From Escherichia coli (GTDB lineage Bacteria > Pseudomonadota > Gammaproteobacteria > Enterobacterales > Enterobacteriaceae), in the NCBI RefSeq assembly GCF_036507355.1, contig NZ_AP027877.1: a stretch of 64,000 nt of DNA; one strand, written 5' to 3'. The position numbers and the translations under genes are program-made. The notes under the pieces are model-generated. The model ran no database searches and was not told the origin of the DNA. It saw nothing but the letters and a program-made list of their open reading frames with translations. Within the stretch, counting starts at the first letter, position 1; each line of letters begins with the position of its first letter. Positions 49,749-50,667 of this stretch are shown here, one piece after another.

Positions 49749-50667
49749 GAATCTTGACCTTTTTTGCTGTTATCGCCACTCCCTGCCGTGGAAGTCAGCT
49801 TAGAACAATGTACTCCCCCAGGACGGTGTTTTGAAGGTCTGCAGAATAAGATTTTGCCAGAGGGGAAGGCTCGATTGTGCTGTTAATAACTTAATAATGA
49901 CAAAATAATGAGGTGTATATGCTTTACATGCAATGTTATATAGTGAATTGTTCTGATTCTTAATTGTAAGTCTGGTTTTTTTATCTGTAAGATAATTGTG
50001 TGAAAATGCCTCATTTAAGAATTCACTAATGAAACGCGATGATGATATTTCCGCATTACGGAGAGTTTAACAGCGTGATGATTTCCGAGGTGTCGCAATG
50101 GGGGCAATGTGTGAAACTATTGTTAAGCGGAATTAATGAATGAGGATGATGCTAATTAATTATTATTTAATATTCAAAAAGGTTTTGATGTGCTTATTAA
50201 TAATAGAAGATTACTTTGCCTAACATAACATAACTTTGCATCAGATAATTCGCAATGACCCTTATAAATAAAAGGTTTTTGGGGTAAAATGCTCGCATAA
50301 ATGACGGATCCCTGCTCTTGATGCCGCCTCACCATTGCTGTTTGTACGTGTTCGCGTATGACCAGCGATGCTGCACGAGAGTGGAACAAGGACTCACATT
50401 TACATTTATACAAACACGCGCATGTCATAAATAGAAAAGAGTGAGTAACTTAATAGATATGCGATCCCTGAAGATATATTCTGTGATCTACTTCAGGCAT
50501 TATAACGGAACAATGTGAGTCGCTTTTTTAGTGCAACTCATATGCATTTTTACTTTCGTCCGGGTTCCGGATGAAACTGCCAGGGAGGCACATTACAAAT
50601 GGAATTGCTTGTTTGTGTGTGCACAGCATTAACCAGCTCAGTATGAGCCGCCAGTAAGTGATAATAT

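Follow-up and report, generated by a model that had tools for sequence, protein, structure and literature searches.

The 919-bp alaA-lrhA spacer of Escherichia coli as a probable divergent control region with a long, sRNA-targeted lrhA leader

The interval between alaA and lrhA in the analyzed stretch of Escherichia coli DNA (64,000 nucleotides of contig NZ_AP027877.1, hereafter the window) is very probably the divergent control region of these two genes, composed of parts that are ordinary and, for the most part, already published. On the alaA side, conservation points to a sigma-70 promoter followed by a leader of some 52 nt, at whose start a conserved hairpin would lie. In the middle, about 400 bp of AT-rich DNA would provide docking sites for the transcription factors that control lrhA, namely Lrp, OmpR and LrhA itself through autoregulation. 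The lrhA promoter (-35 at 50262, -10 at 50285) would then fire at A50297, giving rise to a 371-nt leader bound by Hfq. [quoted passage not shown] McaS forms chimeras with the leader with no effect on translation, and the short Hfq-bound RNAs reported from this locus would be pieces of the lrhA leader. The features of the region are as follows.

48531-49748, minus strand: alaA, whose start codon ends at 49748.
49749-49800, minus strand: putative alaA leader of about 52 nt, placed from the conserved -10 and ending in an AAAGG Shine-Dalgarno region before the ATG.
49775-49799, minus strand: conserved hairpin GCU-G-ACUUCC [ACGGCA] GGGAGU-GGC, identified from the MFE fold and conserved pairing.
49835-49807, minus strand: putative alaA sigma-70 promoter, with -35 TTCAAA at 49835-49830, a 17-nt spacer and -10 TACATT at 49812-49807, recognized by its conservation.
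49836-50240, no strand assigned: AT-rich upstream DNA common to both divergent promoters, with a GC content of about 0.31-0.34 and mostly poorly conserved.
50113-50178, no strand assigned: moderately conserved AT-rich block, GTGTGAA..GTTAAG..AATTAAT-N16-AATTAATTATTATTTAATATT.
50174-50428, minus strand: 84-aa ORF, judged spurious, lying antisense across the lrhA promoter and transcription start site (TSS).
50241-50254, plus strand: conserved motif TCAGATAATTCGCA, which immediately precedes the lrhA -35 (about -56 to -43) and has a column identity of 60-80%.
50262-50290, plus strand: lrhA sigma-70 promoter, with -35 TTATAA at 50262-67, a 17-nt spacer and -10 TAAAAT at 50285-90, at the right distance from the published TSS.
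50297-50667, plus strand: lrhA 5' leader of 371 nt, delimited by the TSS from the literature and by primer mapping.
50574-50590, plus strand: predicted ArcZ site CUGCCAGGGAGGC, opposite the ArcZ seed UUUCCCUGGUG (-19.7 kcal/mol for the local duplex, which involves ArcZ nt 59-79).
50616-50628, plus strand: UGUGUGCACAGCA, candidate complement of the common RprA/McaS seed UGCUGUGUGUA, based on the sRNA sequences and on a local duplex scan in which the complement reached 50638.
50650-50656, plus strand: CGCCAGU (positions -18 to -12 relative to the AUG), where UhpU pairs, marked by the M1 mutation and by published compensatory mutagenesis.
50668-51606, plus strand: lrhA, with its ATG at 50668.

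According to the ORF listing and the RefSeq annotation, the gap that separates alaA on the minus strand from lrhA on the plus strand spans positions 49749-50667 (919 bp), and the gene pair is flanked by yfbR/yfbS and by nuoA. The GC content of the gap was 0.383 (vs. 0.519 for the whole window), with an AT-rich core of 430 bp (49870-50300) in which it was 0.313; only about 1% of equal-sized windows were as AT-rich as the gap. This is also the largest true intergenic gap in the window, given that the one longer stretch lacking any ORF of 150 aa or more (51737-52695) holds nuoA (147 aa). Coordinates, GC content and size ranking thus agree with the original prediction of an AT-rich non-coding gap upstream of lrhA, the largest with no convincing ORF. 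The exception was the mention of many A/T tracts: 14 tracts of at least 4 bases were counted, vs. 11.4 ± 3.1 in shuffles of the region, a number for which base composition suffices. The next intergenic gap, between lrhA and nuoA (51607-52236), measures 630 bp and has a low GC content as well (0.35-0.43).

The sequence of the interval is widely shared within the species. Positions 49600-50800 showed 99.9% identity to the genomes of E. coli strain 472 and O157:H7, and the stretch was present once in all but one of 5426 complete E. coli genomes (5425). The interval was carried in two places by 26 genomes, and 42 of the 5425 lacked 80% of it in one place. The lrhA-alaA spacer of K-12 (b2289/b2290; K-12 coordinates 2,406,642-2,407,560) has the same length, 919 bp, and 914 of its 919 bases are identical; window position 50297 corresponds to 2,407,012 on the K-12 minus strand. 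Among the five SNPs relative to K-12 (50053, 50072, 50108, 50296 and 50343), the one at 50296 occupies position -1 of the lrhA TSS and the one at 50343 lies inside the leader; the mapped pairing sites are hit by none of them. The RefSeq annotation of K-12 holds no feature between b2289 and b2290, though sRNAs such as uhpU are annotated there, and no feature was annotated under positions 49800-50620 in 58 out of 60 spread-sampled E. coli genomes. In strain 472 (NZ_CP018245.1), the locus tags run from BFL23_RS17500 (alaA) to RS17490 (lrhA), skipping RS17495, which may have been a feature once called in the gap and later withdrawn.

At a broader scale, a genome scan for LrhA provided 80 Enterobacteriaceae loci, and the 76 in which alaA is divergent from lrhA were used for comparison, each from a different species. 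Gap length ranged from 764 to 1140 bp (mostly 900-1010 bp) and GC content from 0.35 to 0.44. Since length and low GC are kept and most of the sequence is not, a constraint on spacing or composition is suggested. In the MAFFT alignment, four blocks showed high identity to the window: 49749-49858, adjoining alaA; 50119-50178, AT-rich and with AATTAAT repeats; 50239-50298, in which the motif CAGATAATTCGCA is followed by CTTATAAAT and then by TAAGAT/TAAAAT, in a geometry that fits a start at 50297; and 50579-50667, with GGAATTGCTT, CACAGCA and AGTAAGTGAA before the lrhA ATG. The first 280 nt of the lrhA leader and most of the central DNA were fast-evolving. The conserved blocks coincide with both promoters and with the 3' part of the lrhA leader. 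Conservation across Enterobacteriaceae had been proposed as a check of the original prediction; length, low GC and the four blocks were indeed kept, and no small ORF was conserved.

Two of the loci retrieved deserve a separate mention. In Entomohabitans teleogrylli, a GC-rich and hairpin-rich insertion of about 120 nt was observed between GGAATTGCTT and CACAGCA, within the 3' part of the lrhA leader that is conserved elsewhere; it could be a REP-like or mobile element. A contig labelled ‘Chryseobacterium sp. 18061’ (CACSKA010000019.1) carried an alaA-lrhA locus of the Enterobacteriaceae type (LrhA identity of 78%), very like that of ‘Citrobacter sp. 18056’ from one and the same project, and this assembly is probably mislabelled or contaminated.

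The lrhA transcript is reported to have an unusually long 5' UTR of 371 nt (Melamed et al. 2023, PMC10578931), and an earlier database annotation with a short 5' UTR is mentioned by other authors (PMC4152368). Counting 371 nt back from the lrhA ATG leads to A50297, so that the published TSS could be placed in the window. Moreover, the 3' end of primer SM079, used for the PBAD fusion from +1 (PMC10578931), is ATAAATGACGGATCCCTGCT, which corresponds exactly to positions 50297-50316. The long lrhA leader foreseen in the original prediction was therefore corroborated by both the published UTR length and the primer. Upstream of this start, the -35 region CTTATAAAT and the -10 hexamer (TAAGAT/TAAAAT) were conserved across the 76 species. 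The lrhA hexamers proposed by Shimada 2014 (CTGCCA-16-TATGAT) were absent from the window at that spacing.

Within the leader, positions 50299-50578 were poorly conserved and positions 50579-50667 were conserved (MAFFT, 76 species). The predicted folding of the leader was more stable than that of shuffled sequences (z = -2.76). For the last 100 nt, RNAalifold analysis of 73 distinct sequences gave no consensus structure, and hence no claim is made of a conserved hairpin sequestering the ribosome-binding site.

Published work on K-12 places this leader under the control of several sRNAs. RIL-seq chimeras join it to UhpU, ArcZ, RprA and McaS, the latter with the highest number of chimeras with lrhA (PMC10578931). 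A lrhA-lacZ translational fusion was repressed by UhpU, ArcZ and RprA and unaffected by McaS, for which the authors suggested possible inhibition of McaS, and a compensatory point mutation proved that UhpU pairs with lrhA (PMC10578931). This control of lrhA by sRNAs is restated in two later papers (PNAS 2025 and NAR 2026). In the lrhA-M1 gBlock, GCCGCCAGT is replaced by GCCGCGAGT, which corresponds to C50652G in the window.

In order to locate pairing sites, duplexes between the sRNAs and the leader were scanned in 24-nt local windows, as RNAduplex with whole sRNAs gave meaningless giant duplexes. The local scan recovered the UhpU site (50635-50656, -19.9 kcal/mol). The exact UhpU site was present in 8 of the 76 species, some of them outside Escherichia, and CCAGGGA, the complement of the ArcZ seed, in 4 of the 76, so that control by UhpU and ArcZ looks lineage-restricted at the sequence level. 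CACAGC was found at -80 to -20 in 59 of the 76 species. RprA and McaS would be the partners of the site at about 50616-50638, as judged from the complementarity of their seed. The top-scoring RprA duplex (50377-50400, with RprA nt 78-88) was passed over, as those nucleotides presumably lie within the RprA terminator stem. A gain of the UhpU-lrhA pairing in Escherichia has been described (PNAS 2025).

On the opposite side of the interval, the -35 and -10 hexamers assigned to alaA showed a column identity of at least 90% across the 76 species, and the 17 nt between them were variable. Fixed hexamers around a variable spacer were read as the footprint of a sigma-70 promoter, with its +1 near A49800, where the alaA TSS would lie. 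The putative leader downstream had a mean identity to the window of 72-91% per 20-nt bin in the 76 species. Another alaA promoter, predicted at 49963-49935 by Shimada 2014, was poorly conserved.

The hairpin at the putative 5' end of the alaA mRNA was conserved: 92% of cells were paired (vs. 30-74% in slid controls), compensatory changes were found in four pairs, and the ACGGCA loop and upper stem were almost invariant across the 76 Enterobacteriaceae species. In addition, frequent U.G pairs are valid only on the alaA-sense strand and become mismatches on the other one. The hairpin had no Rfam match, and no description of it was found in the literature searched. It may act as a 5' stabilizer or as a recognition element. 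Stem-loops at the 5' terminus, of the type found in the ompA 5' UTR, stabilize mRNAs. Like these, the alaA hairpin starts 0-2 nt from the putative +1 and its pairing is kept through compensatory changes; unlike a pure stabilizer of the ompA type, its ACGGCA loop and CUUCC/GGRAG arms are nearly invariant, which stabilization would not need.

Several transcription factors are known to act on the DNA between the two promoters. Lrp binds and directly activates lrhA, according to the ChIP-seq literature, and the OmpR ChIP signal is raised at lrhA-alaA. LrhA activates expression of its own gene, and in Salmonella 880 bp of upstream DNA have been employed as the lrhA promoter. Peaks of the RpoD holoenzyme were detected by SELEX in the ‘920-bp lrhA-alaA spacer’ (Shimada 2014), and transposon insertions between the two genes are reported to render ST131 hypermotile. 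The block at 50113-50178, which precedes the lrhA TSS by about 120-185 bp, is a candidate site for LrhA (autoregulation), Lrp or another factor. The motif TCAGATAATTCGCA is a candidate transcription factor site resembling an RcsAB box: compared by eye with TaAGaatatTCctA, which we take to be the RcsAB-box consensus, positions 50241-50254 matched at about 9 of 14 positions in E. coli and at about 12 of 14 in Salmonella arizonae.

The same AT-rich core could instead act mainly as a curved silencer bound by H-NS and be the chief determinant of lrhA and alaA expression, an explanation that could coexist with that of a divergent control region. H-NS generally prefers AT-rich DNA; the 430-bp core, with a GC content of 0.31, ranks among the lowest 1% of windows, and low GC is kept across the 76 species. 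However, the A/T tracts counted above are not enriched over composition, and TCGATAAATT, which we take to be the high-affinity H-NS motif, had no site within 2 mismatches in the region. Furthermore, the lrhA-alaA spacer is left unmarked for HNS in the table of Shimada 2014, in which other, neighbouring spacers are marked, and the region is actively transcribed both ways and can be bound by the RpoD holoenzyme on its own in SELEX (Shimada 2014). The description of the gap as curved, H-NS-bound DNA was consequently not supported by tracts, motif or table; H-NS may bind here, but a dominant role for it in silencing seems unlikely.

A different question is posed by the short RNAs from this region. 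The region is strongly enriched in Hfq co-immunoprecipitates and yields RNAs of 150 and 350 nt (Bilusic et al. 2014, PMC4152368), which are almost undetectable in total RNA and were assigned by the authors to the lrhA 5' UTR (PMC4152368). In the same work, lrhA mRNAs of 1.5 kb and 1.25 kb rose in a hfq mutant on Northern blots (PMC4152368). Inspection by eye of the sequence 3' of lrhA revealed a terminator-like hairpin followed by a T-run at about 51646-51692; adding up the leader (371 nt), the gene (939 nt) and about 90 nt to this hairpin results in about 1.4 kb, a size compatible with the 1.5-kb band.

A 5' fragment of the leader of about 150 nt (approximately 50297-50447), bound by Hfq, might not be an intermediate of decay but a regulator acting in trans, for instance a sponge that titrates McaS or RprA. 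The marked enrichment with Hfq of RNAs hardly seen in total RNA fits such a role, as does the position of McaS, which tops the lrhA chimeras yet leaves lrhA-lacZ unchanged and whose inhibition was raised by the authors (PMC10578931); the leader is also predicted to be more structured than its shuffles. Against it, the fragment uses the lrhA TSS with no promoter of its own, the leader contains no terminator-like site, and there is neither an Rfam family nor a K-12 gene. Moreover, conservation within the gap is lowest over the first 280 nt of the leader, where identity to the window is 24-45% per bin across genera. Action in trans is therefore considered highly unlikely. That the interval harbours two uncharacterized RNA elements, the 150-nt sponge for McaS/RprA and the alaA 5' hairpin with its ACGGCA loop as a cis element recognized by a protein or an RNA, is likewise a doubtful proposition. 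The preferred reading is that the short RNAs are parts of the lrhA leader; leader fragments are the only RNA species known from the gap in the literature, and they may be products of sRNA-guided cleavage.

Searches for genes hidden in the interval were consistent with this reading. No Rfam match at E ≤ 1 was obtained in the gap, and the only two hits, both chance matches to miRNA families, fell outside it, one of them on the lrhA terminator-like hairpin. A consensus scan detected no terminator-like site inside the gap and 3 promoter-like sites, vs. 3.2 expected from shuffles, a scan that missed both conserved promoters. The earlier suggestion that the gap could hold an sRNA was thus right in that Hfq-bound RNAs of 150 and 350 nt do originate here, but these belong to the lrhA 5' UTR, and terminator-like site, Rfam match and K-12 gene are all lacking.

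Regarding proteins, the 84-aa ORF was intact in none of the 76 related loci, was disrupted, through stop codons or a frameshift, in both E. albertii and a divergent locus labelled as E. coli, the two Escherichia loci other than the window, and contains two of the SNPs between window and K-12, both non-synonymous. Among 30 ORFs of at least 10 aa, those wholly inside the gap were intact in at most 8 of the 76 loci, and a 12-aa ORF overlapping the lrhA start was intact in 16 of the 76. No Pfam match was obtained for the four gap ORFs searched, and no literature was found tying lrhA to ribosome or small-protein profiling. A small protein, which the original prediction had also allowed for, finds no support in these results. 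That one is encoded by the 84-aa ORF, or by a uORF of the leader (28 aa, 50571-50657, or 15 aa, 50599-50646) coupled to lrhA translation, is scarcely credible: the ORFs are present in the sequence and the 28-aa uORF stops 10 nt before the lrhA AUG, overlapping both the putative ArcZ site and the part of the leader that is conserved, but both uORFs are intact only in two Escherichia loci, their start codons are kept in just 16 (28 aa) and 31 (15 aa) of the 76 loci, no obvious Shine-Dalgarno sequence precedes them by eye, and, as for the 84-aa ORF, Pfam, the annotation of K-12 and of 58 of the 60 sampled E. coli genomes, and the profiling literature found are all silent. Altogether, with no conserved ORF, Pfam or Rfam match, terminator-like site or small-protein literature, neither an independent sRNA gene nor a small protein is supported.

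Insertion sequences were encountered in a few genomes. In the 60-genome sample there was one IS1 insertion, and one genome matched over the first 116 bp only, beside an IS1. An assembly of a W3110 laboratory culture carried IS1A at about 50521-50533, some 135-147 nt before the lrhA AUG, and in the poultry strain EEC_W5 an IS1B was located at about 50665-50677, where lrhA translation starts. The match in strain SCPM-O-B-12142 stops at an IS1 from about 49915, followed by elaD/rbn and not by lrhA-nuo. Disruption of the lrhA leader by IS1 fits selection for hypermotility.

LrhA stands near the top of the regulatory hierarchy of motility, fimbriae, rpoS and, lately, CRISPR-Cas, and the way in which many signals come together at flhDC is explained by its control region. 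As this convergence has already been established for the exact sequence, no new biology is added here. The outcome of use is a coordinate map of published features, together with the removal of the hypotheses of an sRNA gene and of a small protein; just two loose ends have some value, namely the hairpin conserved in the alaA leader and the repeated insertion of IS1 into that of lrhA.

The closest known system is the lrhA-alaA region of K-12 itself (PMC10578931, PMC4152368), which is the same locus: the window retains the TSS sequence, along with the UhpU site and the stretches complementary to sRNAs, and the five SNPs that separate the two intervals leave the mapped pairing sites untouched. 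The lrhA-alaA spacer was grouped with csgD-csgB and nanC-fimB as long multi-factor spacers (Shimada 2014). The flhDC and csgD leaders and the csgD-csgB spacer likewise combine a long AT-rich divergent spacer, many factors and a long 5' UTR targeted by multiple Hfq-dependent sRNAs; they differ from lrhA in their genes and sRNA sites, while lrhA has a proven UhpU site by the ribosome-binding site and a leader whose 5' 280 nt evolve fast. Finally, the 180-nt RNA of the adhE 5' UTR (Bilusic 2014) resembles the lrhA fragments in being short, bound by Hfq and sharing the 5' end of its mRNA.
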